Counted from the first letter of the stretch, positions 919 through 59,514 are shown. The stretch is 64,000 bases of DNA from a virus (IMGVR_UViG_3300027714_002832), one strand, 5' to 3'. A program made the numbers and translations. The notes: generated by a model not told the origin, from the sequence alone.

Positions 919-994
919 GGGGATATAGCTCAGTTGGGAGAGCGACTGCCTTGCACGCAGTAGGTCGTAGGTTCGATCCCTATTATCTCCACCA
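919..994 (+). tRNA. tRNA-Ala (anticodon UGC)
   Basis: 76 nt incl. CCA; acceptor GGGGATA/TATCTCC with G3:U70 Ala identity pair; anticodon loop CTTGCAC; T-loop TTCGATC. Confidence 0.85.
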
Positions 995-1043
995 TTATGT
1001 GACTATTAGTCTAATAAATAAAGTAGTAAGTATGAAGTACAAT

Positions 1044-1119
1044 GGGGATATAGCTCAGTTGGGAGAGCGACTGCCTTGCACGCAGTAGGTCGTAGGTTCG
1101 ATCCCTATTATCTCCACCA
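1044..1119 (+). tRNA. tRNA-Ala (anticodon UGC), second identical copy
   Basis: identical 76-nt sequence to 919-994. Confidence 0.85.
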
Positions 1120-1154
1120 TTTTAAAATTAAAGAGATATCAAATTTCTTTAAAA

Positions 1155-1230
<76 letters not shown>

Positions 1231-4069: not shown

Positions 4070-4098
4070 TTGACAAACAGCCACTTAGTTGATATAAT
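4070..4098 (+). promoter_or_regulatory. sigma70-like promoter upstream of clpP
   Basis: TTGACA 4070-4075, 17 nt, TATAAT 4093-4098. Confidence 0.55.
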
Positions 4099-4130: not shown

Positions 4131-4745
4131 ATGTTAGTACCAACAGTAGTAGAATCAACAGGACGTGGAGAACGCGCTTATGATATTTATAGTCGCTTGC
4201 TTCGTGATCGGATTATTATGCTCAATGGAGAAGTAAACGATCACACCGCAAACCTAATCGTAGCACAGATGTTATTTTTGGAATCAGAAAATCCATCAGA
4301 AGACATCAATTTTTACATCAATAGTGGCGGTGGTTCTGTCACCGCTGGACTTAGTATCTATGATACTATGCAGTATATCAATTCACCAGTGTCTACCATC
4401 GTAATGGGACAAGCGTGTTCAATGGGATCATTGTTATCGCAAGCGGGCGCTCCAGGAAAGCGATTTGTTTTACCTAACAGTCGTACTATGATTCATCGTG
4501 TTAGTTCGGGCACTCAGGGTACACGTGGTAGTATTCATGTACAAGAACTTGAGTTTGAAGATGCAAAGCGACATATGGATGAGTCAGTTAATTTGAACAA
4601 TCGTCTTACGCAGTTGTATGTAGATCATAGCAGCAAAGGAAAATCATTTGATGAGTTTTATGCTACTATGAAGCACGACACTTTCATGTCAGCACCAGAA
4701 GCAGTTGAATTTGGTCTTGCTGATAAAGTGATTGCTAAGATCTAG
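4131..4745 (+). CDS. clpP: ATP-dependent Clp protease proteolytic subunit ClpP
   Basis: [16 protein letters not shown]..., [21 protein letters not shown] (Ser), MIHRV (His) blocks of ClpP/S14. Confidence 0.9.
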
Positions 4746-4851
4746 ATTGATCAGAAGTTGGACAGTCAGTTCAACTTCATTTAGTCCCGCTAATGATAAA
4801 TATGTATATCAGTCATATTATTGTGACATTAATATAAAAGGAATTTAATCA

Positions 4852-5703
4852 ATGACGTACAGACACGACCACAAAGATCCAAATATGAGTGGATCACAAA
4901 AAGCATTAAAATATGACGTAGATGGTGAACCAACATTGCGCGTAAGCATTGAGGAGATGGCTTCTAATTTGGTTACGCCTGTTGGCTCAAACAAGCCATA
5001 CTTGCTAGAAGTAGCACAGGGATTAATTCCAGGATACGGTTGCAACCACAAGTTTGGTGCAGTGCCCACTATGAGTAATAACACCACAGGTAGTGTATGG
5101 GATGTTCCTAACACAGTATACCCATTTAACGCATTTGGTGCTGGTAGTGTTATCAACGTTGAACGTACTAATGCAGCAGATGTAGGTAGTGTAATTAGAA
5201 TGCAAGGCTTAGATGTAAACTTTAATTTCATCGAAGAAGACATCCCACTTAATGCGAGAGACCAAGTAGGCACACTGGTATTCATTAGATTAAACAGAGC
5301 GTTCATGGTTACTGATGGTGGATCAAACCTTGGCGACATTAATTTTGAAATTGGTGTACCAGGCGGTGTAACGATTGCTCGTATAACAGAAGGTTATGGA
5401 CAGACGCTTATGGCAGTGTACACAGTGCCTGCAGGCGTAACAGCATATTTACTTAATATTTCTGCTACTGCATCAGATGACGCAGATGCCACAATCTCAC
5501 TATTAAAACGTGAGCCTTCTAGTGACGTTTTTAGAATAATGACAACATTTGAATTACAACAACGTGGCGGCGGATTTACACAAGAGTTCCCTTGTGCACT
5601 AAAGATCGTAGAAATGACAGACATTGATTTGAGAGTTATTTCACGTGCAAGTGGCAAGCGTTTCACGGGAACATTTGATATGCTATTAGTAGATAATGTA
5701 TAA
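4852..5703 (+). CDS. hypothetical protein (possibly structural)
   Basis: 283-aa ORF, Gly/Val-rich, no catalytic motif. Confidence 0.45.
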   Translation: MTYRHDHKDPNMSGSQKALKYDVDGEPTLRVSIEEMASNLVTPVGSNKPYLLEVAQGLIPGYGCNHKFGAVPTMSNNTTGSVWDVPNTVYPFNAFGAGSVINVERTNAADVGSVIRMQGLDVNFNFIEEDIPLNARDQVGTLVFIRLNRAFMVTDGGSNLGDINFEIGVPGGVTIARITEGYGQTLMAVYTVPAGVTAYLLNISATASDDADATISLLKREPSSDVFRIMTTFELQQRGGGFTQEFPCALKIVEMTDIDLRVISRASGKRFTGTFDMLLVDNV

Positions 5704-5711
5704 ATAAGTAT

Positions 5712-6398
5712 ATGAGATTACATAATTTATTTGAAAACAACAAACCAATATTAGATGAGGGTCCAAAAGATCCTCATATCTTTAAATCAGTATTTCTTGC
5801 GGGCGGACCAGGTTCTGGTAAAAGTTTTGTAGCAGGTAAATTACTTAAAGGCGGCGGTCTTAAAGTAGTTAATTCTGATGATATTTACGAATACTTAATG
5901 AAACAGCAGAACTTAGAAATGGACCCAGAGACTATTTTTAGTCCTCAAGGTCAAGCAATTCGTGATAAAGCGAAAGGTCTAACAGGCATCCGTCAAGGCG
6001 GATTTCTAGATGGTCGTTTAGGTCTTGTTATAGACGGAACTGGTAAAGATACTGGTAAAGTAAAAAAGGAAAGTGATAAACTACGTGATTTAGGTTATGA
6101 TACGATGATGGTATTCGTTAATACTAGTTTAGAAGTAGCACAAGCGCGAAATCAAGCACGATCTAGAAAACTTGCACCAGAAGTAGTTGAGGCGATGTGG
6201 AATAAAGTTCAACAGAACATAATGAAATTCCAGCAAATCTTTGGCGCGGCGAACTTCCATGTTATTGATAATTCTGGTGGATTAGAAGACCCAGATAGAG
6301 CAGAGAATTTCGATACCGTATATAAAGAAATACAAAAGTTTATTAATACACCACCATCAAGTCATATTGCTAAAAAATGGCTAGATAATAATAAATAA
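5712..6398 (+). CDS. P-loop NTPase, nucleotide-kinase-like
   Basis: Walker A GGPGSGKSF near N-terminus, small size. Confidence 0.55.
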   Translation: MRLHNLFENNKPILDEGPKDPHIFKSVFLAGGPGSGKSFVAGKLLKGGGLKVVNSDDIYEYLMKQQNLEMDPETIFSPQGQAIRDKAKGLTGIRQGGFLDGRLGLVIDGTGKDTGKVKKESDKLRDLGYDTMMVFVNTSLEVAQARNQARSRKLAPEVVEAMWNKVQQNIMKFQQIFGAANFHVIDNSGGLEDPDRAENFDTVYKEIQKFINTPPSSHIAKKWLDNNK

Positions 6399-6502
6399 TT
6401 CTATAACATATTAAACCATCTTATAACTAAGAACTCATGTATTGCTAAATATAGATATATGGGTTTTTTTATGCCTGTAACATAATAAGAGGAACACATA
6501 TC

Positions 6503-6847
6503 ATGTATACATATCGTGTTAAATTAGTAAGAGTAATAGACGGTGACACCATTGATGCAGAAATCGATCTAGGCTTCAATGTGGTGATGAGACAGCGAAT
6601 TAGATTGTACGGTATAGCGACACCAGCGACTCACACAAAAGATTTAGAAGAAAAAGAGCGTGGTCTAGCATCAAAGCAGCGCCTGACCGAACTATTACCA
6701 AAAGAGTTTATTGTTGAAACAATATTAAACAAGCGTGGAAAGATTGGTAGAATAATGGGCATCGTGTATGTAGAAGAATATGATACGTCTATCAATATCA
6801 ATGATGTAATGGTTGAAGAAGGTCACGCAATTAGGTATAATAAGTAG
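6503..6847 (+). CDS. staphylococcal-nuclease (SNase/thermonuclease)-like protein
   Basis: VIDGDTID...RIRLYGIATPA resembles SNase V(I)DGDT and DTPE blocks. Confidence 0.5.
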   Translation: MYTYRVKLVRVIDGDTIDAEIDLGFNVVMRQRIRLYGIATPATHTKDLEEKERGLASKQRLTELLPKEFIVETILNKRGKIGRIMGIVYVEEYDTSININDVMVEEGHAIRYNK

Positions 6848-6857
6848 AGGATAAATT

Positions 6858-8414
6858 ATGAGATATTTTGGTATTTGGACAGTTTTTGTAGCATTAACTA
6901 TTAGCGTAGTAGCAGCGTATTATTCAATCATTGGACTAGTTGCTATATTCGCCGCATCAATGGTTCCTGTCATAATCATGGGCAGTGTATTAGAAGTAGG
7001 CAAAATAACAACCGCAGTATGGTTACATAAGTACTGGGATAAAGCAACATTCTTGATGAAATCTTATTTAACTATTGCTGTACTGTTACTCATGTTTATT
7101 ACTAGTATGGGTATTTTTGGTTTCCTATCTAAAGCACATATTGAACAGACAGCAATGGCTGGTGAAGGTGTAGCACAATTGGAACGTGTGGAAGCCGATA
7201 TTGCACGAAATCAATCAGTTATCGCTCGTGCAGATGATAAGATGATCAAACTAGAATCATCAGATGAAACAATAGATACCAATATTCAAACAAAGATTGC
7301 GACAGAAGAAAATCGTATCGCAGGGAAGTCACAGAGATTACAAACAGCAATAGCAGAACAAACAGCAGCGATAGAGTTAGCAGTTGCACCGTATATGACA
7401 CAGCAACAAGCAGCAGACAATGCACTCGCATTAATGAATGGGTTTGTTCAGAATAATGAAATTAAGAAGATACAAGGATTAATTGGCGAAGTACAAGATG
7501 GTTCATATGGAACAAAGACTGCCACTGGAGTTAAGGAATATAGAAATAACCTACTTGATGAACGTGCAACAGCCTTATCTATTGTCAATGAATTACGAGC
7601 AGATACCAGAACTGAAATCGCTAGACTACGTGCAAATTTTGAACAACAGGTAGAATCATCGAATGCACTGATTAGTCGAATGACAACTGAACTTAGCGTA
7701 GTTGAACGTGTAGACACAGAAGCAGACATAACTGCATTGCAATTGAAAATTAAGAATTCAGAAGAATCACTTGACAAACTCTATGAAACAAAGTATACTA
7801 TAGAGACTGAAAGCAGAAAGTTAGAAGCCGAAGTAGGACCTGTTAAATACATAGCAGCATTAATATATGGTGATGATCCTACTAAAGACACATTGGAAGA
7901 TGCTGTACGATGGATTATTATGATACTTGTAGTTGTGTTTGATCCGTTAGCCGTTGTATTAGTAATTGCGGGCATTTCTATTCTTGAGCAAAAGAAAGTG
8001 AACGTAGTACGTGATGATCAGGCTGAATACGATAGAGCAAGAGTACAGCGTATGGTTGATAATACACCTCATAAAGAAGTGGTGGTTGAGTCAATTGAAG
8101 TTGCTGAAAAAGAAACTTCAACAGTAGAAACAGAATTAGAGCGTGAGATTCGTGAATTAAATGAACAACGTGAATTAAATGAATCAAGTCGTAGCATACA
8201 AAAAGAAGCAAATCAGCAAGCATTATTGCTTGTTAAAGATATATCAAATCGCATGATTCAAAGCGGAAGTAATATCACATGTATCAGTGATGTAATAGCA
8301 TCAGACGATACAGGAACCCTGAAGCAGTTATTAGAGGGTGCTGATAAAGACACATTGAATGATGTACAAACTATTATAGCAAACACAATTAATCAAATAC
8401 AGGAAAGTAAATGA
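6858..8414 (+). CDS. membrane protein with long coiled-coil regions
   Basis: 518 aa; three N-terminal TM helices, heptad-rich middle, internal TM WIIMILVVVFDPLAVVLVIAGISIL, acidic C-term. Confidence 0.5.
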   Translation: MRYFGIWTVFVALTISVVAAYYSIIGLVAIFAASMVPVIIMGSVLEVGKITTAVWLHKYWDKATFLMKSYLTIAVLLLMFITSMGIFGFLSKAHIEQTAMAGEGVAQLERVEADIARNQSVIARADDKMIKLESSDETIDTNIQTKIATEENRIAGKSQRLQTAIAEQTAAIELAVAPYMTQQQAADNALALMNGFVQNNEIKKIQGLIGEVQDGSYGTKTATGVKEYRNNLLDERATALSIVNELRADTRTEIARLRANFEQQVESSNALISRMTTELSVVERVDTEADITALQLKIKNSEESLDKLYETKYTIETESRKLEAEVGPVKYIAALIYGDDPTKDTLEDAVRWIIMILVVVFDPLAVVLVIAGISILEQKKVNVVRDDQAEYDRARVQRMVDNTPHKEVVVESIEVAEKETSTVETELEREIRELNEQRELNESSRSIQKEANQQALLLVKDISNRMIQSGSNITCISDVIASDDTGTLKQLLEGADKDTLNDVQTIIANTINQIQESK

Positions 8415-8854
8415 AGCAAGACAACAGTAGTTATACAATAACAAATCCTGATCTATTTTTAACAAATGATGGGATTTCTGTATTAATCACGAGTACTAAC
8501 AAAGAATTCATTGACGAAGTAAAATTAATAGTAGAGCATCACATTGAACATAGTATTGTGTTTAATGTGCAGCCTTCTAGCACCACCGAAACAGGTGTTC
8601 CCTGGATGTGGTATGTGAGTCGTGCAGTTGACATTATGTTTGTTGATTTAGACACATGTGCTTGGGTAGACATTTGTACTGCATTGACAAAAGAACAGGA
8701 TGATAATCATGTTGTTGTGTTTTTTAGTGACAGGAACAAAAAACGCGATGCTATTAAATTGATAAATGCAACGAGTAAGTATATTATACTGAAAGATATT
8801 AAAGAGATCAGTGCATACATGGAAACACATGTTCAACTGTCTGCTCCTTTATGA
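8411..8854 (+). CDS. hypothetical protein
   Basis: 147-aa ORF, ATGA overlap. Confidence 0.45.
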   Translation: MKQDNSSYTITNPDLFLTNDGISVLITSTNKEFIDEVKLIVEHHIEHSIVFNVQPSSTTETGVPWMWYVSRAVDIMFVDLDTCAWVDICTALTKEQDDNHVVVFFSDRNKKRDAIKLINATSKYIILKDIKEISAYMETHVQLSAPL

Positions 8855-10080
8855 CAGAAATGTTAAAATGCGCATTTTGTCATAAGACACAAAAGCAAGT
8901 TTCTAAGTTACTTGCTGGTATAGACGAGCATATTTATATTTGTAATAAATGTGTTCATTTGTCACACAGCATTTTAGAGAAAGAAGATAAAACAAAAACA
9001 CTCAAAGATAAGAAACGTAAGTTACGTGATATTTTTGATACTGTCCCACCTAAACAAGTCCATGAATATTTAAACGAACATGTGATTGGTCAAGAAAAAG
9101 TTAAGAAAGGAATTAGTGTAGCAATATACAATCATTGTAAGAGAATCTTTAATGACACCGTTGTGCAAGTACAAAAATCAAATGTATTACTATTGGGTCC
9201 TACAGGTGTTGGTAAAACACTTATTGCACAAACGCTAGCAAGTTCAATGGATGTGCCATTCGTCATTACAGATGCAACTACGATTACTGAAAGTGGTTAT
9301 GCTGGAGATGATGCAGAAGTATTGATACATAAGTTATTCCAAAATTCTGATTATGATATTGCACGAACCGAGATTGGTATCATCTACGTAGATGAGATAG
9401 ACAAGAAAGCCAAGCGTAATGACATGGTAAGTTTAAGTCGTGATGTATCAGGCGAAGGTGTTCAACAAAGTTTACTGAAACTCATGGAAGGCACCACCAT
9501 CGCAGTACCTAATAAACATGATAGATCTCCTGAAAAAATAGATATAAATACAGAGAACATCTTATTCATTGTGGGCGGTGCTTTTATTGGATTAGAGAAA
9601 GTAGTTGAGCAGCGTCTAGGTAAATCAAAAATAGGATTTACTGGAAAAATGGCAAGCAAAGATTATAATTGGGAAGATGAACTTGAAACGAGTGATCTAG
9701 TTCAATATGGTCTAATACCAGAATTCTTAGGAAGATTACCATCAGTTAATGTATTACATGAATTATCTAAAGATGATTTGGTGCGTGTGTTGACTGAACC
9801 GAAAAATAGTATTGTAAAGCAATATCAAGCATTATTTGAATTAGATAATGTTAGTTTAGAATTTAAGCCATCTGCATTAAGAGCAATCGCAGAGACTTCT
9901 ATTAAGCAAGATCTAGGTGCAAGGGGATTACGCAAAATAATCGACAATGCACTCATTGATACACAATATGAATTACCCGACCTTGTAAGACAAGGCGTTC
10001 AGAAGATTATTATTAGTGAAGAAACTATAACTAGAGGAACAACACCACACATGATCAAAGGATCCATAAGTGAAAAATAA
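8851..10080 (+). CDS. clpX: ATP-dependent Clp protease ATP-binding subunit ClpX
   Basis: N-terminal C4 zinc finger CAFCHK...CNKC, Walker A LLGPTGVGKT, ClpX-type IGF/sensor blocks. Confidence 0.9.
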   Translation: MTEMLKCAFCHKTQKQVSKLLAGIDEHIYICNKCVHLSHSILEKEDKTKTLKDKKRKLRDIFDTVPPKQVHEYLNEHVIGQEKVKKGISVAIYNHCKRIFNDTVVQVQKSNVLLLGPTGVGKTLIAQTLASSMDVPFVITDATTITESGYAGDDAEVLIHKLFQNSDYDIARTEIGIIYVDEIDKKAKRNDMVSLSRDVSGEGVQQSLLKLMEGTTIAVPNKHDRSPEKIDINTENILFIVGGAFIGLEKVVEQRLGKSKIGFTGKMASKDYNWEDELETSDLVQYGLIPEFLGRLPSVNVLHELSKDDLVRVLTEPKNSIVKQYQALFELDNVSLEFKPSALRAIAETSIKQDLGARGLRKIIDNALIDTQYELPDLVRQGVQKIIISEETITRGTTPHMIKGSISEK

Positions 10081-10576
10081 AAAACCAATGTTGATGTTTA
10101 ATCAATTCATAACATTTCGCGAAGTACGTGTCAATTTTGAAGACGGCGAAAGTAAAGTACTAAATACAGTAGAGGCATTATCTATCGCAGAAGGTAGAGG
10201 ACTGGATTTGATTGTTATCAATGAAATTGCAGTTCCACCAGTATGTAAGATTGCTGATAAAAATAAGTTTTTGTATGAACAGAAACAAAAACAAAAAGAC
10301 ACTGCAAAAAAGGCAAGAGCCAGTACAGTAGAACATAAAGAAATCCGTATGGGTTTGAATATCGAAGAAAATGATATTACTGTTAAATCTAATAAGATTA
10401 AAACATTATTGGAAAAGAATTGCAGAGTTACTATTACCGTGACCTTGAAGGGTCGTGAACGAAGTAAGCAACATATAGCACGTGAACTAATCCAATCTAT
10501 TGCAGATCGATTAGGTGTTGAGTTGGAATTATTCGGTGCAAGTGGTAATAGAGTTAGTGCGAAAATAAAAGGTTAA
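10070..10576 (+). CDS. infC: translation initiation factor IF-3 homologue
   Basis: EVRVNFEDGE..VLNTVEALSIAEGRGLDLIVINEIAVPPVCKIADKNKFLYEQ and C-domain KEIRMGLNIEENDI...TLKGRE colinear with bacterial IF3. Confidence 0.8.
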   Translation: MKNKKPMLMFNQFITFREVRVNFEDGESKVLNTVEALSIAEGRGLDLIVINEIAVPPVCKIADKNKFLYEQKQKQKDTAKKARASTVEHKEIRMGLNIEENDITVKSNKIKTLLEKNCRVTITVTLKGRERSKQHIARELIQSIADRLGVELELFGASGNRVSAKIKG

Positions 10577-10578
10577 GA

Positions 10579-10821
10579 ATGGCATATAATAGAAATGAGC
10601 GTCAAGGTTTGACGGTTGCAGTATACAATGATAACATCGAACAAGCGTTGCGTAAATTTAAGAAGAAGATGACCACAGATGGTAAACTTCAAGAAGTAAA
10701 GGATCGCGCAGAATTTACACCAAAATTTGAAAAGCGTAAAGCATCACAAGCAGCAGCAAAGGCACGATTGCGCAAGCAATTGTCACAAGAGAATAATGTT
10801 ACTAAAAAGCGTTTATTCTAA
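10579..10821 (+). CDS. rpsU: ribosomal protein S21 homologue
   Basis: 80 aa, basic; ALRKFKKKMTTDGKLQEVKDRAEFTPKFEKRKASQAAAKARLRK matches bS21 pattern. Confidence 0.7.
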   Translation: MAYNRNERQGLTVAVYNDNIEQALRKFKKKMTTDGKLQEVKDRAEFTPKFEKRKASQAAAKARLRKQLSQENNVTKKRLF

Positions 10822-10850
10822 ATAGACAACTGGTAACTTTACACTAACAA

Positions 10851-10875
10851 AGGAGCATTAAATGCTCCTTTTTGC
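10851..10875 (+). terminator. rho-independent terminator
   Basis: AGGAGCAT-TAA-ATGCTCCT hairpin then TTTTG. Confidence 0.75.
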
Positions 10876-10904
10876 TTGCTTTATTATTAATTCCGTAGTA
10901 TAAT
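10876..10904 (+). promoter_or_regulatory. candidate sigma70-like promoter upstream of clpS
   Basis: TTGCTT 10876-10881, 17 nt, TATAAT 10899-10904. Confidence 0.4.
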
Positions 10905-10931
10905 ATATGTTAACCAATAAAGGAAATACCA

Positions 10932-11240
10932 ATGACACAATCATCAGCATCAACATCATCCGAACTAACACACACACGACTACGTGGCCCATCAAAGTAT
11001 AATGTTATCTTTTTAAATGATGACGCAACCTCTATGGAATTTGTTATTTCGGTACTAACTGCTATCTTTCATAAAGATGCAACAGAAGCAGCAGAAGTAG
11101 CAGTACACATTCATGAAAAAGGCAAGGCAATCGCTGGAACCTATCAGTATGAAGTAGCAGAACAGAAAGTAACTGAGACAGTATCTAATGCTCGTTCAGC
11201 AGGCTTTCCACTTTCATTAACGTTGGAAGAAGTTGAATAA
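10932..11240 (+). CDS. clpS: ClpS adaptor protein homologue
   Basis: YNVIFLNDDATSMEFVISVL...EAAEVAVHIHEKGKAIAGTYQYEVAEQKV matches ClpS core. Confidence 0.8.
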   Translation: MTQSSASTSSELTHTRLRGPSKYNVIFLNDDATSMEFVISVLTAIFHKDATEAAEVAVHIHEKGKAIAGTYQYEVAEQKVTETVSNARSAGFPLSLTLEEVE

Positions 11241-11244
11241 ACAC

Positions 11245-11273
11245 TTGACAAGTAAGAAGCCTTGGTATATAAT
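11245..11273 (+). promoter_or_regulatory. conserved phage promoter module
   Basis: ACACTTGACAAGTAAG..17 nt..TATAAT then GTTATATAAGTTAATTAAAG. Confidence 0.6.
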
Positions 11274-12143: not shown

Positions 12144-13394
12144 ATGCAACCGTTTGAACTATTGGATAGGTTTGAACTGATGTACCCTAACAACAGTAAG
12201 TTATCAGATCTGCGTAGGGCATACATTGACAAAGATCTAAGTAGTATCTTTCGATTACTACCAGCAGGACATAACGACTTACGTAAGGCAGTGATAGAAC
12301 AAAACTTACATAGTATCTTTCGATTACTACCAGAAAAACATGAAGACTTACGTAAGGCGGTGATAGAACAAAACTTACATAGTATCTTTCGTTTGCTACC
12401 AGCAGAGCATGAAGAACTAGGCAGAGCAGTGATAGAACAAAACTTGCATAGTATCTTTCGATTACTACCAAATGTTAGTAATGATGATCTTGAAGACTTA
12501 CGTAAGGCAGTGATAGAACAAAACTTGCATAGTATCTTTCGTTTGCTACCAGACGAGCATGAAGAACTAGGTAGAGCAGCAATAGAACAAAACTTACATA
12601 GTATCTTTAGACTAGTAGACGATGAAGACTTGCGTAGAGCAGTGATAGAACAAAACTTGCATAGTATCTTTAGACTAGTAGATGATGAAGAATTACGCAA
12701 ACTACTATTAGAAGATAATATTTGGAAGTTATGGCCTGTGCTATCTAGATACACTGATACACAGTTCGTTGAAGCATTCAAAAACTTCTTTGTCAATGAT
12801 ACTGAGATATGGGATGATTGTTTCGCAAGAGGACAGTTAGAAAGTAAACTATGGTTAGTGCGTGAATTGCAACAATGTAATATACCACTAGGCACTGTGT
12901 TTATTTGTGCGGGCTGGTATGCAACTATCGCTACTATGTTGTTTGAGAGCGACATGGAAATAGATAAGATTCGCAGTTTTGATATTGATACTACTTGTGC
13001 AGAAATCGCAGAAGTGTTTAATAAGCCTTGGGTAGTAGATGGATGGAAGTTTAAAGCGGCTTACAAAGATATACACGATATTGATTTCACAGGAAAAACA
13101 CCCTATAGTGTTTATAAATCAAATGGCGAAGAGCAATTGTTATGTGATAGTCCAGACACTGTTATAAACACAAGTTGTGAGCATATTGATAACTTTGAAG
13201 CATGGTATTCCAAGATACCAGATGGTAAATTGGTGATATTACAAAGTAATAACTTCTATGAAGTGGATGAACACGTAAATTGTGTTGCAGATGTTGATGA
13301 ATTTATTGACACTGCGCCTATGAGTACTGTATTGTACAGTGGAGAATTAGAGTTGCCTAAGTATACTAGGTTTATGATAATTGGATATAAGTAA
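12144..13394 (+). CDS. tandem-repeat protein (N-terminal repeats of the AVIEQNLHSIFRLLP motif, C-terminal globular domain)
   Basis: 416 aa; RBS AAGGAA upstream; about 7 consecutive 21-22-aa repeats LRKAVIEQNLHSIFRLLPxxHE(D/E). Confidence 0.7.
   Translation: MQPFELLDRFELMYPNNSKLSDLRRAYIDKDLSSIFRLLPAGHNDLRKAVIEQNLHSIFRLLPEKHEDLRKAVIEQNLHSIFRLLPAEHEELGRAVIEQNLHSIFRLLPNVSNDDLEDLRKAVIEQNLHSIFRLLPDEHEELGRAAIEQNLHSIFRLVDDEDLRRAVIEQNLHSIFRLVDDEELRKLLLEDNIWKLWPVLSRYTDTQFVEAFKNFFVNDTEIWDDCFARGQLESKLWLVRELQQCNIPLGTVFICAGWYATIATMLFESDMEIDKIRSFDIDTTCAEIAEVFNKPWVVDGWKFKAAYKDIHDIDFTGKTPYSVYKSNGEEQLLCDSPDTVINTSCEHIDNFEAWYSKIPDGKLVILQSNNFYEVDEHVNCVADVDEFIDTAPMSTVLYSGELELPKYTRFMIIGYK
12213..12714 (+). repeat. 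in-frame tandem DNA repeats (about 63-66-bp units, about 7 copies) inside the CDS
   Basis: repeated GCAGTGATAGAACAAAACTT(A/G)CATAGTATCTTTCG(A/T)TT(A/G)CTACCAG units. Confidence 0.8.
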
Positions 13395-14987: not shown

Positions 14988-16052
14988 ATGAACGCAGTTA
15001 ACGCTTGGACAGAGTTTCAACCATTGAAGAAAGTAGTATTGGGTGCACCATTCCCAGAAACTGCATTTGATTGGCACGAAGATGAAGAGACACGAGACAC
15101 TATGCGACAAATCTTCCGTGAAACAGCCGAAGATATTGAAGTACTAGCACAACTATTAGAAGCACGTGGAATTGAAGTGGTACGTCCCAAGAACATCTTT
15201 ACAATCACTGGTGAAGAACAGATTCAATTACCGTGGGCTCATTGTGCGTTTCCGAACCATCCATTAATGCCGCGCGATACGTTGATGCCATATGGTCATT
15301 CAATTTTTGAATGCTTTACAGGCGGTGACAATCGTTACTTTGAAAACCTAGCATACTATGATCACGTAGTAGAATGGTTTAAACAAGGTGCTGATTGGAT
15401 TTCAATGCCTGGCTGCATGGTAGAAACTGGTAAAGGATATGATGAATACGTAGCAGAGCAGCGTGTACTGTATCATGCTGCAAATATGATCAAGTGTGGT
15501 GATACTATCTTATTCAGTCAACCATACGAAGGTGACAACAAGCGTGGACGTGGTACGAATTTGGGCAAGGAATGGATGCAAAGAGAAATCAAACAGCGTT
15601 ATCCTGATACTAAATTTATTGATATTCCAATTGGTGGTCACATAGATGGTAAGATTGCATTATTGAAGCCGGGTGTTCTTATGACGTGGAACAAAGCATG
15701 GGTCCCAGAAGAATTCAAGAATTGGACAATCATTGAAGTAGAAGATGATTTTGACATGCCAGCAGATTTTCAAAATACACGTAAGCGTAGATACTATAAA
15801 GAGTATGTACAGAAGTGGTTAAGTCATTGGGTAGGTTATGCAGACGAGTCTGTATTTGATGTTAATGTATTATCATTGGATGAAAAGACGGTAATCTGTA
15901 CAGGTAAAAACGATGCAGCATTTGCTGAAATGGAAGCAAACGGAATTGAACCAATTGTTTGGCGATTCCGTCATCAGTATTTTTGGGATGGTGGTATCCA
16001 TTGCTTGACTAGTGATATCGTACGTGAAGGTAATTGTGAGAATTATTTATGA
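14988..16052 (+). CDS. amidinotransferase / guanidino-group-modifying enzyme superfamily protein
   Basis: C-terminal GGIHCLTSDIVREG resembles the catalytic-Cys GGxHCxT motif of amidinotransferases/ADI/DDAH. Confidence 0.55.
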   Translation: MNAVNAWTEFQPLKKVVLGAPFPETAFDWHEDEETRDTMRQIFRETAEDIEVLAQLLEARGIEVVRPKNIFTITGEEQIQLPWAHCAFPNHPLMPRDTLMPYGHSIFECFTGGDNRYFENLAYYDHVVEWFKQGADWISMPGCMVETGKGYDEYVAEQRVLYHAANMIKCGDTILFSQPYEGDNKRGRGTNLGKEWMQREIKQRYPDTKFIDIPIGGHIDGKIALLKPGVLMTWNKAWVPEEFKNWTIIEVEDDFDMPADFQNTRKRRYYKEYVQKWLSHWVGYADESVFDVNVLSLDEKTVICTGKNDAAFAEMEANGIEPIVWRFRHQYFWDGGIHCLTSDIVREGNCENYL

Positions 16053-17083
16053 GTATGCTATGGCGTGATAATATACAAAGCCTACAAGTAGATGTTACTA
16101 GTTATTGTAATGCTAAGTGTGGTGGATGCGCTAGAAATGACGACGGTCATGAAACAAGACCGGGTCTTATTCTTGAAAACTTTGATGTTGATGTATGGAA
16201 TCGTATGGCAGAGCATGATACCAAAGATATTTTTATTAATGAACTGGTATTAAACGGGAATTGGGGTGACTCTATGATGCATCCTAAAATTAAAGATATG
16301 GTTACAACATTTGCAAAATTTCATCCAGAAGCGAGTTTATATATCCATACCAATGGCAGTATGCGCACGACCAAATTCTGGGCTTCTTTTGCCAAAGTTT
16401 GTCGTCAATTCTCAAATCATCGTGTAGTTTTTGCAGTAGACGGTCTAGAAGATACACATGCGATATATCGTCGTAATACCGACTTTCTTAAAATTATGGA
16501 GAATATTAAAGCATTCACCGATGCGAATGGACGAGCGAGTGTAACCATGACCCTATTTGAACACAATAAACATCAAGTAGAAGAAGTTAAAAAAATAGCA
16601 CAATCGCTTAATGCAGATTTTACCTTACGTTACAGTCATGGAGATGGACTAGAAGTAATTGCGCCTGGCGAAAATTATATGATATATGCATGTGATGAAT
16701 TGCCCGAAGAGGAGGTAGAAGTAGAGCATGATAATTATAGATTAAGTGATTTACCAAATTATATGGATAATCTAATTATATCAGATGCAATAGAACCTGT
16801 CGCATCAACATGTCCGTGGTTAGCAGATCGTCAAGTGCAAATTGATCCATGGGGTACGGTGTGGCCATGTTGTCATATTAGTAATCATGCAAATTCCTTT
16901 TCATCAGAGTATACTGGGATCGCCGCAACTGATGATAATTTCGATGAAGGTAAACTAGCAAATAACCTGAAGCATACGCCGTTATATGATATCCTTAGTA
17001 ATCGGTGGTATGCGGATGTGTTACCTGATGCGGTAAAACATGAAAAATGGCTAGTTTGTCGTGATTCATGCTTTAGTGATTAA
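16049..17083 (+). CDS. radical SAM enzyme with C-terminal SPASM/twitch-like motif
   Basis: CNAKCGGC (Cx3Cx2C); C-terminal CPW...GTVWPCCH and CRDSC; paralogue of ORF 1309-2334. Confidence 0.8.
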   Translation: MSMLWRDNIQSLQVDVTSYCNAKCGGCARNDDGHETRPGLILENFDVDVWNRMAEHDTKDIFINELVLNGNWGDSMMHPKIKDMVTTFAKFHPEASLYIHTNGSMRTTKFWASFAKVCRQFSNHRVVFAVDGLEDTHAIYRRNTDFLKIMENIKAFTDANGRASVTMTLFEHNKHQVEEVKKIAQSLNADFTLRYSHGDGLEVIAPGENYMIYACDELPEEEVEVEHDNYRLSDLPNYMDNLIISDAIEPVASTCPWLADRQVQIDPWGTVWPCCHISNHANSFSSEYTGIAATDDNFDEGKLANNLKHTPLYDILSNRWYADVLPDAVKHEKWLVCRDSCFSD

Positions 17084-18946: not shown

Positions 18947-19468
18947 ATGAAATATAGTGACTTTATTAGAACAGTACCAAATTATCCAATTGATGGTGTT
19001 AATTTCTATGATGTGAATAGTCTATTCGCTGATAACAAATTGTTCAGTGTGATGATAGATGATATGGCAGATAAGTTATCACTTGTTGATGATAAGTACC
19101 CAACGCATATCGCAGGATTAGAAAGTCGTGGTTTTGTAATAGGTGCTGCATTGGCATACAAAATGGGATTACCATTCGTAATGATTCGAAAGAAAGGTGC
19201 GAAATATCCTGGCGATCTATTAGAACAAAGTTATGGTACAGAATATTCAACAGATACCATTGTATTACAAGAAGGGTTGCTAAGTCACACCGATCGTGTT
19301 ATACTAGCAGATGATCTAATCGCAACAGGCGGTAGTATGATGGCAGCACGCTCACTGGTTGAATCAACTGGCGCTAAAGTAGTAGGCATTGGTGTAATCA
19401 TTGATCTATTTTATGTGCATTGCAAAGAATATGACTTATTAAATGTCATAGCATTAGACACTGTATAA
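18947..19468 (+). CDS. apt: adenine phosphoribosyltransferase
   Basis: IAGLESRGFVIGAALA and PRPP-binding VILADDLIATGGSM motifs. Confidence 0.85.
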   Translation: MKYSDFIRTVPNYPIDGVNFYDVNSLFADNKLFSVMIDDMADKLSLVDDKYPTHIAGLESRGFVIGAALAYKMGLPFVMIRKKGAKYPGDLLEQSYGTEYSTDTIVLQEGLLSHTDRVILADDLIATGGSMMAARSLVESTGAKVVGIGVIIDLFYVHCKEYDLLNVIALDTV

Positions 19469-19503: not shown

Positions 19504-19905
19504 ATGATTGAAATAACAAAAAAAGCACAAGAGTATATGACCACTATCGCGACAGGTGACAATGAAATAGTTAAACTTGCGCTTGAAGGTGGTGGTTGTT
19601 CTGGATTCCAATATTCGTGGAACATCATCGATAAAGATGGTATCGATGAAATGAGCGATGAGGTTATGACGTTTGAAGATGGTGGTGGACTAATCATAGA
19701 CGGTATGAGTCTGATGTATTTGTTCGGTAGTGAAATTTCATTAGAATCAAATCTAATGGGTACAAAACTAATCATAAGCAATCCACAAGTAACCAGTTCA
19801 TGTGGTTGTGGCGATAGCGTCAACATAGATACTGGAGCAGCATCTTGTCCCAAAGAAGAACCAGCAGCATATAATGCGGATATGTTTTACGATCCCTCAG
19901 AGTAG
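19504..19905 (+). CDS. IscA/HesB-family Fe-S cluster insertion protein
   Basis: GGGCSGFQY and C-terminal SCGCGDS Cys ligands. Confidence 0.8.
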   Translation: MIEITKKAQEYMTTIATGDNEIVKLALEGGGCSGFQYSWNIIDKDGIDEMSDEVMTFEDGGGLIIDGMSLMYLFGSEISLESNLMGTKLIISNPQVTSSCGCGDSVNIDTGAASCPKEEPAAYNADMFYDPSE

Positions 19906-23538: not shown

Positions 23539-24219
23539 ATGCTATTTAATAAAGATGAAAAGAAGAAAAAGAAGTCACCAAAAAAAGAGATTCCTTCAGT
23601 AATTCCAGTACCCAAACAAGAACCAATGATGCCACCGCAGCCTGCTATGCCGATGCCTCCTGGACCTCCAAAGCAGCCGGGTGAACATTTACGCGATAAT
23701 GGTGTATTGTTCATGGATAAAGAATTCAATCAAGATAACTGTATGCCATTGGTAAAGATGATCATGGAATACAATCTCATGCCAGCAGATAAAGCACCAC
23801 AAGTTATTCACTTATATATCAATTCGCCTGGCGGGTATGTAGATTCGTGTATGCATCTGATTGATGTTGTAAAGCAATCCCGCATCCCTGTATATACATA
23901 CGGCATGGGTTCTATCGCTAGTTGTGGTGTAATGCTGATGATGTCTGGCGTTAAAGGACATCGTTATCTAACCCATAATACAGCAGTCATGTCACATGAA
24001 TTTAGTGGTGGCACTCGTGGTCAATATCACGATATGGTTGACAGTCAAAAACATATGGATTGGACAAATAAAAAATTGCTAGAACATTACAAGAAATGCA
24101 CTGGTAAGAATGAAAAATATATCCGTGAGTTTACACTAGCACCTAAGACAGATCATTGGTTAACACCAGAGCAAGCAGTAAAGCATGGTATCGCAGATCA
24201 TGTGATCGCAACATACTAA
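23539..24219 (+). CDS. ClpP-family (S14) serine peptidase, second paralogue with Pro-rich N-terminus
   Basis: INSPGGYVDS, GMGSIASCGVMLMMSG (Ser), AVMSHEFSGG (His); N-terminal KKKKK/PMMPPQPAMPMPPGPP. Confidence 0.75.
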   Translation: MLFNKDEKKKKKSPKKEIPSVIPVPKQEPMMPPQPAMPMPPGPPKQPGEHLRDNGVLFMDKEFNQDNCMPLVKMIMEYNLMPADKAPQVIHLYINSPGGYVDSCMHLIDVVKQSRIPVYTYGMGSIASCGVMLMMSGVKGHRYLTHNTAVMSHEFSGGTRGQYHDMVDSQKHMDWTNKKLLEHYKKCTGKNEKYIREFTLAPKTDHWLTPEQAVKHGIADHVIATY

Positions 24220-28865: not shown

Positions 28866-29930
28866 ATGTTAAAAAGTTTCTTTGGAACTAAAGAAAGCGC
28901 AGTATATGCATGGGTAATGCTTGCATTCTTGTTAGTTATTACTTGGTACAATGTACAAATATTAGTAGCATACAACTTGTGGAACAAAGAGTTCTATGAT
29001 TCAATTCAAACTCTTCAACAAGAAAGATTTTGGCAACTACTATGGGGATTTGATATGATCAGATTTACCGAGTTGCTAACATTAAAAGAAGACACCGTAC
29101 CATCATTCTTGGAAATTATAATCCTATATACACCAATGGCTACATACGTTATATGGCAGACACAGAGATATACATTCAGATGGCGTGAAGCGAATACACA
29201 TCACTATCTTAAACGATGGGAGAAATCTACCGCTAAGATAGAAGGTGGTTCACAGCGTATTCAAGAAGATTTAATGGTATTCGGTAAAACATTACAAGGT
29301 CTATTCACTGGATTCTTTAGTGCAATACTTGTATTATTTGCATTCTTACCTATCTTATGGGAATTATCAGAAGGTCTACCAGTTTGGAATGGTCAAATCA
29401 TTCCAGGATTCTTAGTGTGGGTAGCACTGACTATCTCAATCGGTGGCACATTGATCTCATTCATATTGGGTATGAAATTGCCTGGACTAGAATACAATAA
29501 CCAAGTGGTAGAAGCAAAATTCAGAAAGAAATTAGTTCATTCAGAAGATGATATAACGCAGCGTGTAACTGATGATTTATTTCCAATGTTCGCAGCAGTC
29601 AAGAAAAACTATTATCGCTTATTTAACTGGTATATGGGCTTTGGTGTATGGTCAACTGCATTCGGTTTAGCAGCGGGCAATATCGCAATCGTGGTATTAG
29701 CACCAAGTTACTTTGAGCAGTTAATCACATTAGGTGTTCTATTCCAAGTACTTAACGCATTTGGTAGAGTAGAAGGTTCAATGACATTCTTTATTGATAG
29801 ATGGACAACGATTGTTGACTTCCAATCAGTGATTAAACGATTGCGTGAATTCAACAAAGTATTGGATGAAGCAGAATTAAATCCTACACCACCAGTAAAG
29901 AAGAAACGAGCATATCGTAAGAAAGCATAA
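28866..29930 (+). CDS. SbmA/BacA-family inner-membrane peptide transporter homologue
   Basis: MLKSFF start, NLWNKEFYDSIQ, KIEGGSQRIQEDLMVF, LPGLEYNNQVVEAKFRKKLVHSEDD, VKKNYYRLFNWYMGF, VLNAFGRVEGS blocks colinear with E. coli SbmA. Confidence 0.75.
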   Translation: MLKSFFGTKESAVYAWVMLAFLLVITWYNVQILVAYNLWNKEFYDSIQTLQQERFWQLLWGFDMIRFTELLTLKEDTVPSFLEIIILYTPMATYVIWQTQRYTFRWREANTHHYLKRWEKSTAKIEGGSQRIQEDLMVFGKTLQGLFTGFFSAILVLFAFLPILWELSEGLPVWNGQIIPGFLVWVALTISIGGTLISFILGMKLPGLEYNNQVVEAKFRKKLVHSEDDITQRVTDDLFPMFAAVKKNYYRLFNWYMGFGVWSTAFGLAAGNIAIVVLAPSYFEQLITLGVLFQVLNAFGRVEGSMTFFIDRWTTIVDFQSVIKRLREFNKVLDEAELNPTPPVKKKRAYRKKA

Positions 29931-32127: not shown

Positions 32128-33099
32128 ATGAAAATTATTGCAGGTAACAGTAACAAAAAAATGGCACTTGCCATTGCAGAAAGGTGCTTTGCGTCACTCG
32201 TATCCGCAGATATCAAAACATTTGCAGATGGTGAATCAAGTGTACAGTTTAACGAGAACATTCGTGGCGAAGATGTTTTCATCATTCAATCAACGTCTAC
32301 TCCTGTTAATGACAATCTTATGGAATTGTTGGTTATGATTGACGCTGCAAAACGTAGCAGTGCAACTCGCATTACCGCAGTAATGCCATACTTTGGATAT
32401 GCACGCCAAGATCGTAAGAGTGCATCCCGTACTCCCATCACAGCAAAACTAGTAGCAGACTTACTAACAACAGCGGGCGCAGACAGAATCCTTACAATGG
32501 ACTTACACGCAGGACAAATACAGGGATTCTTTGATATTCCAGTCGATGATCTAACATCCCGTATTGCGTTTGCTAAAGATATTAAGAAGCAATTCTTCAA
32601 AGAAGGTGCTGACGTAACCGAGATTGAAACTGTATTTGTAAGCCCAGATGCAGGCGGTACAGTTCGTGCACGTAAGTTTGCTGACATGTTTGGTGGTGAT
32701 ATTGCCATTGTAGACAAGCGCAGACCACGTGCTGGTGAAAGTGAAGTTATGGGATTAATTGGCGATGTCAAAGGACAACACGCTATTCTAGTAGACGACA
32801 TTATTGACTCAGGTGGTACATTATGTAATGCTGCTCAAGCAATCATGGATGCTGGTGCACTTAGTGTTAGGGCATATATTACACATGGTGTACTTAGTGG
32901 TACTGCTTGTCAAAAAGTTGAAAAGAGTGTACTCACTGAACTAGTAATCACTGACAGCATTGAATTTAATTGTCCAGCAGATCATACAAAAACTAGAACA
33001 GTAAGTGTAAGTCAAATGTTTGGTGAAGCAATTCGTCGTGTCACTAACGAAGAAAGTGTCAGTAGTTTATTCACCCAACTAGTAAGACCTATAGTATGA
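32128..33099 (+). CDS. prs: ribose-phosphate pyrophosphokinase (PRPP synthetase)
   Basis: N-terminal [37 protein letters not shown] loop [11 protein letters not shown]. Confidence 0.9.
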
Positions 33100-34847: not shown

Positions 34848-35759
34848 ATGAACGAAACAACTCGAACACGTAGGTCCCCAGGAGCCAAAATCGCCATTGG
34901 TGCATTCACCGCAATCGTTGCAATTGTTGTGCTTATAGTCGCATTCAATGCATGGACAATTGTAGGTGTAGGTAAAGAGAAAGTAGGTGCTACTTTTGGT
35001 AAAGTGCACGAGTCTGCACTAGGATCAGGCTTCTATATTGTTAACCCACTTGCAGACTTTGAACGTTACGACTTGCAAGAAGTTACGTATACATGGGAAG
35101 ACTTGGGTGTACCAGCACAAGATAATCTAAAAACATCAATGGACGTTGCTATTACTGGTCATTTTATATCTGGTATGACAGCAAATGTACGTGAAAATAT
35201 TGGTTCTAGCGATGGATTTATGGCATCACAAGTAAATCGCAGGGTGCCTGCTATGATTGTTGAAGTAGGTAAAGAACTTGCTGTTGTTTCACAAGACTTT
35301 TATGGTGAAACTACTCTTGCACGTATGGAAACTGAAATCAAGTTCCGACTTAATAAAGAACTACAGCAACGTGGATATCAAATTACTACTGTGAAGTTCT
35401 CAGATATCAACTTACCACAAGTAGTAACAGCAGCAATCGTAAAAACTAAGCAACGTCAACAAGAAGTTAACGAGCAGTTGGCTAAGTTGAAAATCGCTGA
35501 CTTGCAAGCACAAGAGAAGACAGCAGAAGCACAGGCTGCATCTAAGTCTGCCGCATTTAATGCAACAGCAGCAGAGTTAACAGCAGATGCAGAATTATAT
35601 CGCATTCAACGGGTCGCAGAAGGTAACTTAGCACTATCAGCGTCAGTTACAGACAAATTGATTGAATTGAAAGAAGCAGAGGCAGGTCTATTGTGGAATG
35701 GTGTTATGCCAACTACCATGCTAGGTGCAACTCCAAATGTATTAATGAATCTTAAATAA
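34848..35759 (+). CDS. SPFH/band-7 (prohibitin/HflK-like) membrane protein
   Basis: N-terminal TM helix followed by SPFH-like core and C-terminal Ala/Gln coiled coil. Confidence 0.55.
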   Translation: MNETTRTRRSPGAKIAIGAFTAIVAIVVLIVAFNAWTIVGVGKEKVGATFGKVHESALGSGFYIVNPLADFERYDLQEVTYTWEDLGVPAQDNLKTSMDVAITGHFISGMTANVRENIGSSDGFMASQVNRRVPAMIVEVGKELAVVSQDFYGETTLARMETEIKFRLNKELQQRGYQITTVKFSDINLPQVVTAAIVKTKQRQQEVNEQLAKLKIADLQAQEKTAEAQAASKSAAFNATAAELTADAELYRIQRVAEGNLALSASVTDKLIELKEAEAGLLWNGVMPTTMLGATPNVLMNLK

Positions 35760-39916: not shown

Positions 39917-39970
39917 TTAAGATAAGTGGTCGACGATTCACAAAATTCGCAGTTACTAATGGAGATTAAA

Positions 39971-41185
39971 ATGTCGAATCCAACATATATGGATTATTCA
40001 TCAACGACCCCAGTAGATCCACAGGTCGCCAAAAAAATGGCAGATTGTTTAACAATGGAAGGCAACTTTGGCAATCCTGCATCACGTTCACATACGTACG
40101 GATGGGAAGCAGAAGCAGCCGTTGATAAAGCACGTAAACAAGTAGCAGATTTGATTGGAGCAGATACACGAGAGATTGTATGGACATCAGGCGCAACTGA
40201 ATCAAACAATCTAGCACTTAAAGGCATTGCTCAGTTTTATGCAAAACGTGGTAAGCATATTATTACGTTACGAACAGAACATAAAGCAATACTAGATACT
40301 TGTCGTCAACTAGAACGAGAAGGGTTTGAAGTAACTTACTTAGACCCAATGCCCAACGGTTTACTAGACATTGAAGTGTTTAAAAATACAATCAGAGAAG
40401 ACACCATTTTAGCATCATTTATGCATGTTAATAATGAGATTGGTGTTATACAAGACTTACACGCCATTGGTGATATCTGTAGAGAACATAAAGTATTCTT
40501 CCATGTTGACGCTGCTCAATCAGTAGGCAAAATGCCAATTGACTTAGCAACGCTCCCAGTAGATTTAATGAGTTTTTCCGCACATAAGATATACGGACCT
40601 AAAGGCATGGGTGCATTGTATGTATCACGTAAACCTAGAGTTCGTCTTGAAGCACAAATGCATGGTGGTGGACACGAACGCGGTATGCGATCTGGTACAT
40701 TAGCAACACATCAAATTGTTGGAATGGGTGAAGCATTTGCTATTGCACAAGAAATGATGGCAGAGGAAGAAGTTAGAACACGCGCACTCAGAGATAGGTT
40801 ATACGCGGGATTCTCAGATATGGAAGAAGTAGTAGTCAATGGTGATTTTGAACAGCGTATTGGCAGCAACTTAAATATCAGTTTCAATTACGTAGAGGGT
40901 GAATCTCTATTAATGGCAATCTCTAATATTGCAGTATCTTCTGGTTCTGCATGTACATCTGCAAGTCTTGAACCATCATACGTTCTTAGAGCGTTAGGAC
41001 TTAGTGACGAATTAGCACACAGTTCAATTCGATTTAGTGTTGGTCGTTATACAACAGAAAAAGATGTAGATGATGCAATTATTCTAGTACGACAGAAAGT
41101 AGAAAAATTAAGAGACTTATCACCATTATGGGACATGTACAAAGATGGTGTTGATTTAAGTACGGTACAATGGGCTGCTCACTAA
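39971..41185 (+). CDS. iscS: cysteine desulfurase IscS/NifS
   Basis: start set at [16 protein letters not shown] (RBS GGAGA); PLP Lys block [16 protein letters not shown]; active-site SSGSACTS. Confidence 0.9.
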
Positions 41186-49090: not shown

Positions 49091-49091
49091 T

Positions 49092-59263: not shown

Positions 59264-59514
59264 TATAAATATGCCATCTTTAATAAAAATATTTCTTCAT
59301 CTGGTAGGTCAACTAGAGTAACCCATTCATTGAATGTATAATTAATTCCATCAATCCACCATGCAGCGTGACCATCAGGCCATATAACCGCAGGTCCAAT
59401 CTCATTATGCCATATACACTCATCGTCGTATATGTAGCCGCAATATTCTCTATGATGTACGATCACGATACCATCGGTTGTTACTACAAATGTGCAAGTT
59501 GCACTATCTGACAT
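59263..59514 (-). CDS. hypothetical small protein, WHxxDGPA/FKMA family
   Basis: WHNEIGPAVIWPDGHAAWWIDGINYTFNEW and C-term DEEIFLLKMAYL; paralogue of 31473-31865. Confidence 0.45.
   Translation of the reverse strand: MSDSATCTFVVTTDGIVIVHHREYCGYIYDDECIWHNEIGPAVIWPDGHAAWWIDGINYTFNEWVTLVDLPDEEIFLLKMAYL

Follow-up and report, generated by a model that had tools for sequence, protein, structure and literature searches.

Conserved ClpXP genes and an orphan ClpS in an old gene block of a marine jumbo phage

The clpP, clpX and clpS genes

We analysed a stretch of 64,000 nucleotides (nt) from the virus IMGVR_UViG_3300027714_002832, referred to here as the window, with attention to the clpP, clpX and clpS genes localised between positions 4131 and 11240. 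An original prediction had placed clpP at 4131, clpX at 8851 and clpS at 10932 and had described their catalytic and Walker residues as intact; three open reading frames (ORFs) were confirmed at those coordinates on the + strand, and alignment to solved E. coli structures (such as 8e91, 6po1, 1tyf, 6uqe, 7uiv and 3o2b) bore out the claim about the residues. The same prediction had spoken of a complete module. The three genes are genuine and intact phage genes, but the module is not closed, ClpA having not been found in the window, which encodes ClpXP plus an orphan ClpS.

4131..4745, + strand: ClpP, canonical proteolytic subunit, 204 amino acids (aa); Pfam CLP_protease, 7e-64
8851..10080, + strand: ClpX, 409 aa; NCBIfam equivalogs and zf-C4_ClpX
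10932..11240, + strand: ClpS adaptor, 102 aa; Pfam ClpS, 3.7e-27, 94.3 bits against a cut-off of 23

Pairwise identities to the E. coli proteins were 54% for ClpP, 48% for ClpX and 44% for ClpS, and conservation was counted in 30, 38 and 43 distinct clade sequences, respectively. The invariance of catalytic, docking and pocket residues across these orthologues points to selection on ClpX-ClpP docking as well as on N-degron binding and ClpA docking by ClpS, and the three proteins are evidently under purifying selection for their canonical activities.

ClpP scored 215.5 with Pfam CLP_protease (cut-off 20.2) and 252.8 bits with the NCBIfam subfamily PRK00277, above the cut-off of 249; it did not reach the ClpP equivalog TIGR00493 (235.2 against 308.6) and missed the ClpP-related head-maturation model NF045542 (80.2 bits against 120). 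The Ser-His-Asp triad, for which an alignment check had been proposed, was present in full (S97, H122 and D171), matched the structures 1tyf and 6uqe, was invariant in all 30 orthologues and was likewise aligned in the ClpP of Pseudomonas phage vB_PaeM_PA5oct, Sinorhizobium phage Phosso and Agrobacterium phage Atu_ph07. The alignment ran end to end and began at residue 2 of mature E. coli ClpP, indicating that the phage protein has no propeptide. The axial-loop motif (LVPxVxE…RGER…DIYSRLL), which serves gating and ATPase docking, was present, with P4, V6, E8, R12, E14 and R15 kept in 29 of the 30 sequences. The hydrophobic pocket receiving the IGF loop, which we take to consist of Y60, Y62, F82, I90, F112 and L189, showed invariant Y62 and I90 and variation at F82 (F or Y), F112 (L or F), L189 (V or I) and Y60 (mostly N). 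The canonical handle and Arg sensor, which join two heptamer rings, were not found in the ClpP of the window: ten amino acids are inserted following the residue that matches E. coli I137, where the handle helix begins, and the place of R170 is taken by H in the window and by F in relatives. Both the insertion and the loss of R170 are common to the window's subclade and the ClpP of PA5oct.

ClpX passed the NCBIfam equivalogs NF003745 (503.7 against 359) and TIGR00382 (472.4 against 370.75) and had the N-terminal C4 zinc domain (Pfam zf-C4_ClpX, 49.4 against 27), whose CxxC…CxxC pattern was found in all 38 sequences. Walker A (GPTGVGKT), Walker B (YVDEIDK), the Arg finger (IPEFLGRLP), sensor II (GARGLR) and the pore-2 loop were recognised, and K125, E185, R307, R370, Y153 and V202 were invariant (38/38). 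The original prediction had been made to depend on the IGF loop of ClpX; this loop was found, reading KSKIGFTGK in the window, with the IGF tripeptide in every one of the 38 clade sequences.

The pore loops gave a divided answer, Y153 and V202 being kept and the pore-1 and RKH loops being altered. Pore-1 reads GYAG rather than GYVG (V154A) in 33 of the 38 sequences, the window included, T199 is S in 33 and R228 is deleted in 32; H230 is not conserved, and the RKH loop, which lacks R228, is shortened by three residues. V154A, T199S, the loss of R228 and a non-conserved H230 co-occur in 33/38 of the clade, and the five sequences with canonical loop residues form its most distant branch. These loops mark ssrA specificity and not membership of the ClpX family. 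Six residues have been reported as critical for ssrA binding and specificity, namely Y153, V154, T199, V202, R228 and H230 (Fei et al. 2020, PMC7652416), and in the same work the V154F and R228A mutations raised the Michaelis constant at least 50-fold, R228A moved specificity towards an N-terminal degron, and human ClpX, which is without these residues, did not degrade ssrA-tagged proteins. Because four of the six are altered together in the phage lineage, we predict that phage ClpX reads other degrons than host ClpX.

In ClpS, the residues of the N-degron pocket (N34, D35, D36, T38, M40 and H66) were all identical to those of E. coli, so the loss of pocket residues that had been named as decisive against a ClpS at this position was not observed: N34, D35, T38 and H66 were invariant in the 43 orthologues, D36 was D, N or E, and M40 was M (29 sequences) or Q (13). 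E79, E82 and K84, which we take from the 1MBX/1R6O work to be contacts to the ClpA N-domain, were kept (YEVAEQK in the window, AEVAETK in E. coli), E79 and K84 in 43/43 and E82 in 42/43. About 20 aa precede the core, compared with 25 in E. coli; a minimum of about 14 residues is needed in this extension for substrate hand-off. To our knowledge, ClpS does not interact with ClpX. It binds the N-domain of ClpA (ClpC in some phyla) and hands N-degron substrates to ClpAP (PMC9663308). With ClpS an adaptor of ClpA or ClpC, the three genes cannot be a closed set of protease, unfoldase and adaptor, so the self-sufficiency that had been claimed for them does not hold, and redirection of N-end-rule substrates independently of host Clp would need either the ClpA of the host or a phage ClpA encoded elsewhere.

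Gene order in related viruses

The genes that lie between and beside the three clp genes were as follows.

4852-5703, + strand: protein of PHROG 8198, function unassigned
5712-6398, + strand: zeta-toxin/AAA_33-type kinase
6503-6847, + strand: SNase-like nuclease
6858-8414, + strand: membrane/coiled-coil protein, 518 aa; 4-nt overlap with the 147-aa ORF
8411-8854, + strand: 147-aa protein; 4-nt overlap with clpX
10070..10576, + strand: IF3 homologue; TIGR00168, 120 bits (cut-off 60); begins before clpX ends
10579..10821, + strand: ribosomal protein S21 homologue; a position after ClpX also seen in PA5oct

ClpX of the window type, identical in sequence, was found on JGI metagenome contigs and, with 100% identity in ClpX, on three viral contigs of IMG/VR, the longest of 192 kb, and about 55 further IMG/VR viral contigs carried a ClpX at 48-73% identity. 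In tblastn searches the order ClpP-(kinase)-SNase-transmembrane protein-147-aa ORF-ClpX-IF3-S21-ClpS was recovered in about 55 IMG/VR contigs at 48-79% protein identity, and in almost all the contigs with enough flank. The genes localised between clpP and clpX (4852..8854) accompany the block in relatives, IF3 adjoins ClpX in relatives and in phage Phosso, and ORFs of the block matched PHROGs 8198, 12810 and 452. A 322-kb NCBI contig (JAOHXO010000001.1, GCA_028125345.1), filed as 'bacterium', has the order ClpP-SNase-…-ClpX-IF3-S21-ClpS and looks like a jumbo-phage genome deposited as a bacterial metagenome-assembled genome (MAG). A DNA search against 50,697 phage records gave short matches of 65-73% over the AAA and ClpP cores only and no close cultured relative.

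We place the source of the window among the marine tailed phages of jumbo class (about 320 kb or more), in the broad group of PA5oct, Atu_ph07 and Phosso. The order shared among viral contigs, together with the partial order in cultured phages, indicates that the Clp block is old and vertically inherited, being neither a recent capture from a host nor bacterial contamination.

Promoters and gene coupling

Each of the clp genes had been credited with its own promoter, a claim that was borne out for clpP only. The features that bear on transcription of the block, with all the perfect promoters of the window, are given below.

4070..4098, + strand: perfect sigma-70 promoter, TTGACA-N17-TATAAT, with TG before the -10 hexamer; 33 nt upstream of clpP
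10849..10873, + strand: intrinsic-terminator-like 10-bp hairpin with U-run, between S21 and clpS; -12.5 kcal/mol, z = -3.5
11245..11273, + strand: next perfect sigma-70 promoter, 5 nt past the clpS stop; downstream boundary of the block
841, 4070, 11245, 11912, 17088, 17513, 22241, + strand: perfect promoters
24590, 29995, 32066, 37615, 43518, 43726, + strand: perfect promoters
61837, - strand: perfect promoter

Perfect TTGACA-N16-18-TATAAT sequences occurred 14 times in the window against 0.09 expected, nearly all of them in intergenic gaps and on the coding strand, and several of the 14 had in common the extended motif TTGACAAGTAAG. They look like a class of early phage promoters that host sigma-70 reads. 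A general scan for promoters and terminators showed no enrichment (totals of 39 against 41 and of 5 against 4), only the perfect-consensus class being significant.

No perfect consensus promoter was found between the 4070-4098 and 11245-11273 sites, and no site above 10/12 upstream of clpX. The ATG of clpX (8851) overlaps the stop of the ORF upstream (8854), which in turn overlaps the ORF preceding it; clpX is therefore coupled in translation to the genes before it and lacks a promoter of its own. The block contains three gaps of about 105 nt, and a stable hairpin was present in every one of them. Upstream of clpS, and after the hairpin at 10849-10871 with its U-tract, a perfect -10 hexamer was read from the sequence at 10899-10904 with a poor -35. 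A middle promoter of the T4 MotA type before clpS was considered and rejected: TGCTT is present, but its spacing of about 21 nt to the -10 is unsuitable.

The second ClpP-like gene and the partner of ClpS

23539..24219, + strand: second member of the ClpP family (226 aa), flanked by a DNA polymerase III alpha fragment and a clamp loader

A second ClpP-family protein is thus encoded in the window, in which a clamp loader and a fragment of DNA polymerase III alpha were also recognised. It keeps Ser, His and Asp and has a Lys/Pro-rich N-terminal extension in place of the axial loop. It was found at 75-89% identity in 155 IMG/VR contigs, being far more conserved than the canonical ClpP, and has a homologue of about 225 aa in phage Phosso. 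Its score with the head-maturation model NF045542 (62.7 against 120) missed the cut-off. A partner ring and a morphogenetic protease are among its possible roles.

ClpA was not found by tblastn with three ClpAs in the window, in all the ClpX-type loci or within 10 kb of the ClpX of relatives. In a profile scan of IMG/VR the 600 matches listed shared no contig with the ClpX list, and a relative's ClpA used as single-protein query matched contigs that share the second ClpP with the window and did not match the near-identical 192-kb contig. A protein-database search gave many ClpAs on contigs of 330-370 kb and none on the 322-kb contig with the ClpX block. Relatives sharing the second ClpP gene had ClpA on the same contig, the related ClpAs on relatives' contigs carry a Clp_N domain, and ClpS and ClpA are both present on IMG/VR contig 3300026189_001009. 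All the cultured phages matching the ClpS query also encode a full-length ClpA, PA5oct, Atu_ph07, Phosso and Rak2-like phages among them.

ClpA is encoded 2.5-8 kb downstream of the clamp loader in many of the related viral contigs. At the equivalent position in the window (25.6-30 kb) other genes were found, suggesting that ClpA has moved or been lost in this sublineage. The partner of ClpS would be either the ClpA of the host or a phage ClpA encoded outside the window. Phage ClpS has been proposed to feed host ClpAP (Iyer et al. 2021, PMC7824862).

Interpretation of the block

Taken as a whole, the results are best explained by an ancestral phage block that provides a ClpXP with its own degrons and a ClpS working on a ClpA-type ATPase, a reading to which we assign a probability of about 0.72. 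The block would probably be transcribed early, by the host sigma-70 RNA polymerase, from the promoter at 4070. ClpX hexamers would dock via their IGF loops on a tetradecamer of phage ClpP, unfold substrates and feed them to it, and the resulting phage ClpXP would act on a different set of degrons from host ClpXP instead of merely adding capacity. ClpS would bind N-terminal Leu, Phe, Tyr and Trp degrons and dock on the N-domain of a ClpA-type ATPase, directing ClpAP to N-degron substrates and away from other clients, and the co-transcribed IF3 and S21 may act on ribosomes. Candidate purposes are remodelling of the host proteome, quality control of a very large phage proteome and removal of defence or regulatory proteins.

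Several observations weigh against this explanation. The handle insertion and the loss of R170 are both localised at the ring-ring interface of ClpP, so that assembly of a tetradecamer is not to be presumed, and position Y60 of the docking pocket is N in 27 of the 30 orthologues; this position is variable among cellular ClpPs too. ClpX is only 41% identical to that of PA5oct, below its 48% identity to E. coli, so that the case for a shared phage ancestry of ClpX is one of synteny and not of sequence; by pairwise identity neither ClpX nor ClpS of the phages is closer to one another than to E. coli, and we do not claim monophyly. ClpS passed the Pfam model but reached none of the cut-offs of the NCBIfam ClpS equivalogs (at best 86.9 for 149 and 86.5 for 112), which makes it a divergent ClpS. 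ClpA was not found on the near-identical 192-kb contig, in scans that were pattern-limited. Finally, we infer the early timing of the block solely from the promoter consensus.

A farther-reaching version, in which the block is an early takeover unit of a marine jumbo-phage lineage that rewires proteolysis and translation together, seems doubtful to us with all its parts. If it were true, ClpXP with a remodelled pore would skip ssrA-type tags and hit host proteins chosen by the phage, ribosome-associated or defence proteins for example; ClpS would divert ClpA-type ATPases to N-degron substrates; IF3 and S21, on the same transcript, would re-tool ribosomes; and the handle-insertion ClpP could form, with the second ClpP that has no axial loop, a hetero-oligomeric peptidase unseen in cells.

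The phage ClpS might instead be mainly an inhibitor or decoy of host ClpAP, keeping ClpA from ssrA-tagged and other substrates so that phage proteins are left intact, an alternative that we judge unlikely. In the work of Dougan and colleagues (2002), E. coli ClpS reportedly inhibits ClpAP on ssrA-tagged substrates as well as the autodegradation of ClpA. Such inhibition, the invariance or near-invariance of E79, E82 and K84, and the absence of ClpA from the window would all suit a decoy. A protein selected for docking alone would not, however, be expected to keep N34, D35, T38 and H66 as strictly (43/43) as its ClpA contacts, nor to retain an N-terminal extension of about 20 aa for hand-off, and the cultured relatives pair their own ClpA with ClpS, which fits a working pair of adaptor and ATPase.

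It is less likely still that ORF 4131 is a head-maturation (prohead) protease, with ClpX and ClpS as unrelated accessory genes. Its best PHROG match is phrog_94, 'head maturation protease', the name that RefSeq also gives to the orthologues in PA5oct and Atu_ph07, and the PA5oct ClpP bears an electrospray ionisation tandem mass spectrometry (ESI-MS/MS) flag; the virion proteomics of PA5oct and of phage G speak for a head-maturation role as well. On the other side, the ORF passed the model of cellular ClpP and fell short of the head-maturation model (252.8 against 249 and 80.2 against 120), its 54% identity to E. coli ClpP extends end to end and includes the axial-loop motif LVPxVxExxxRGER, and the IGF loop of the lineage's ClpX is invariant. 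Moreover, it is localised amid early-type promoters and metabolic genes and not among structural genes, and gene 23539, without an axial loop and more conserved, is the better structural candidate.

Very improbable, in our judgement, is a stand-alone ClpX acting as unfoldase or remodeller of a replication complex or of the ribosome, with ClpP serving host ATPases. The IGF tripeptide has, as far as we know, no role other than ClpP docking, and it is invariant (38/38) in the clade, where ClpP lies at most 5 kb upstream in almost every relative with enough flank. E. coli ClpX does have remodelling roles independent of ClpP, on the MuA transpososome for instance, and in the window ClpX is co-transcribed with IF3 and S21 and not with ClpP. 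A replication role has also been suggested for the ClpX of Atu_ph07, which is beside topoisomerase genes (Attai et al., PMC6102473).

That the region is bacterial DNA (contamination, a mis-binned MAG or a recent host insertion) with housekeeping Clp genes is scarcely credible: the proteins are of typical cellular families, one related NCBI contig was deposited as 'bacterium' and no structural phage gene was seen among the window ORFs scanned, but IMG/VR lists identical or near-identical sequence among its viruses, the gene order matches those of the cultured phages PA5oct and Phosso, the Clp genes alternate with IF3, S21, a nuclease and ORFs of phage families, unlike a clpP-clpX operon or a clpS-clpA pair, the 120 best relatives of ClpX are without exception metagenomic (58-91% identical), and the density of consensus promoters, the strand-uniform packing and the tRNA cluster are typical of large phages.

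The ancestral block with its own ClpXP and a ClpA-directed ClpS is thus the reading that we prefer. The age of the block and its wide conservation among uncultivated marine phages, with part of the arrangement found in PA5oct and Phosso too, argue for a selected and integrated function over sporadic gene capture, and the residues lost from ClpX yield a concrete, testable prediction of new degron specificity.

Other genes of the window

The window is rich in accessory genes, and up to about 46 kb nearly all its genes share a strand. Three clustered tRNA genes, two for tRNA-Ala(UGC) and one for tRNA-Thr(UGU), were found at 919-1230 (+). At least eight ORFs encode radical-SAM proteins, at 1309-2334 and 16049-17083 on the + strand and at 47921-49138, 51289-52551, 52514-53446, 55759-56985, 56972-58105 and 59504-60754 on the - strand; several of them have a SPASM-type iron-sulphur (Fe-S) domain on the N-terminal side of the radical-SAM core, an uncommon arrangement, and an ORF resembling Asp/Asn beta-hydroxylases (53424-54179) is in their midst. 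The group may be a cluster for modification of peptides or metabolites. Fe-S assembly genes, encoding an IscA-like protein, a NifS/IscS-like cysteine desulfurase and NifU, were localised at 19504-19905, 39926-41185 and 41229-41612 (+) and presumably serve the radical-SAM enzymes.

An SbmA/BacA-like inner-membrane transporter is encoded at 28866-29930 (+; Pfam 4e-80), and its counterpart in a related viral contig of 203 kb shows 76% identity. Homologues of adenine phosphoribosyltransferase (APRT) and of phosphoribosyl pyrophosphate (PRPP) synthetase, at 18947-19468 and 32128-33099 (+), are auxiliary genes of nucleotide salvage. A protein of the SPFH/Band-7 family is encoded at 34848-35759 (+); the cellular members HflK/C regulate the FtsH protease. 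Finally, the N-terminal half of a 416-aa protein (12144-13394, +), which had no family match, consists of about eight tandem repeats of about 30 aa (…AVIEQNLHSIFRLLP…).

Comparison with known systems

Relative to the E. coli ClpXP and ClpAPS systems, the window has in common the catalytic, nucleotide-binding, IGF, axial-loop, N-degron-pocket and ClpA-contact residues, and differs in V154A, T199S, the missing R228 and the shorter RKH loop of ClpX, and in a ClpP that has no propeptide, carries the insertion and shows R170H and Y60N. Bacteria have clpP-clpX and clpS-clpA pairs, whereas clpS of the window has no clpA next to it.

Among phages, Bacillus phage G (ClpP-ClpX, gp257-gp258) and the Lak megaphage (ClpX) encode canonical proteins whose ClpX is 44-45% identical to that of the window. 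Their clpP and clpX are direct neighbours, the bacterial arrangement, their records gave no match to ClpS, and these genes have been discussed as phage proteostasis genes. Atu_ph07 carries ClpX, ClpA, ClpB, ClpP and ClpS (Attai et al. 2018, PMC6102473), and ClpP, ClpS, ClpA and ClpX have been discussed across jumbo phages (Iyer et al. 2021, PMC7824862); such proteins are also annotated in the database records of PA5oct and Phosso. The presence of these four proteins in cultured jumbo phages is therefore already known, and the bare observation adds little.

Atu_ph07 (490 kb) and Phosso (469 kb) each have ClpX, ClpP, ClpS and ClpA, like PA5oct, and in Phosso the order ClpX-IF3…S21…small heat-shock protein (sHSP)…ClpS is on one strand. 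Unlike in the window, the Clp genes of these two phages are scattered across tens to hundreds of kb, their ClpX has canonical GYVG and GGRK(H/N) loops and the ClpP handle is canonical. Their hosts are soil Rhizobiales, whereas the lineage of the window is from marine metagenomes.

PA5oct (Wroclawvirus, 287 kb) has the order ClpX-S21…sHSP-ClpS…FtsH…ClpP…DnaJ-ClpA. As in the window, the three Clp genes share a strand, S21 follows ClpX immediately and ClpS comes a few genes further on; its ClpP is 63% identical to that of the window, ClpX and ClpS are 41% and 43% identical, and its ClpX is also without the RKH motif. In contrast to the window, no IF3 follows ClpX, ClpP is downstream and not upstream of ClpS, the docking tripeptide is MGF and pore-1 is GYVG, and ClpA, DnaJ and FtsH, none of them seen in the window, lie within 25 kb.

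The ClpX-IF3-S21-ClpS synteny of marine phages, the co-varying loss of ssrA-reading residues and the ClpP handle insertion were not found described in the literature searched, a limited collection, in which the papers on marine jumbo phages had nothing on a Clp block. The synteny, the residue loss and the shared insertion are modest additions to what was known. PA5oct, a cultured and tractable relative with the same ClpP insertion and the ClpX-S21-ClpS order, is a phage in which the targets of phage Clp proteins could be approached.

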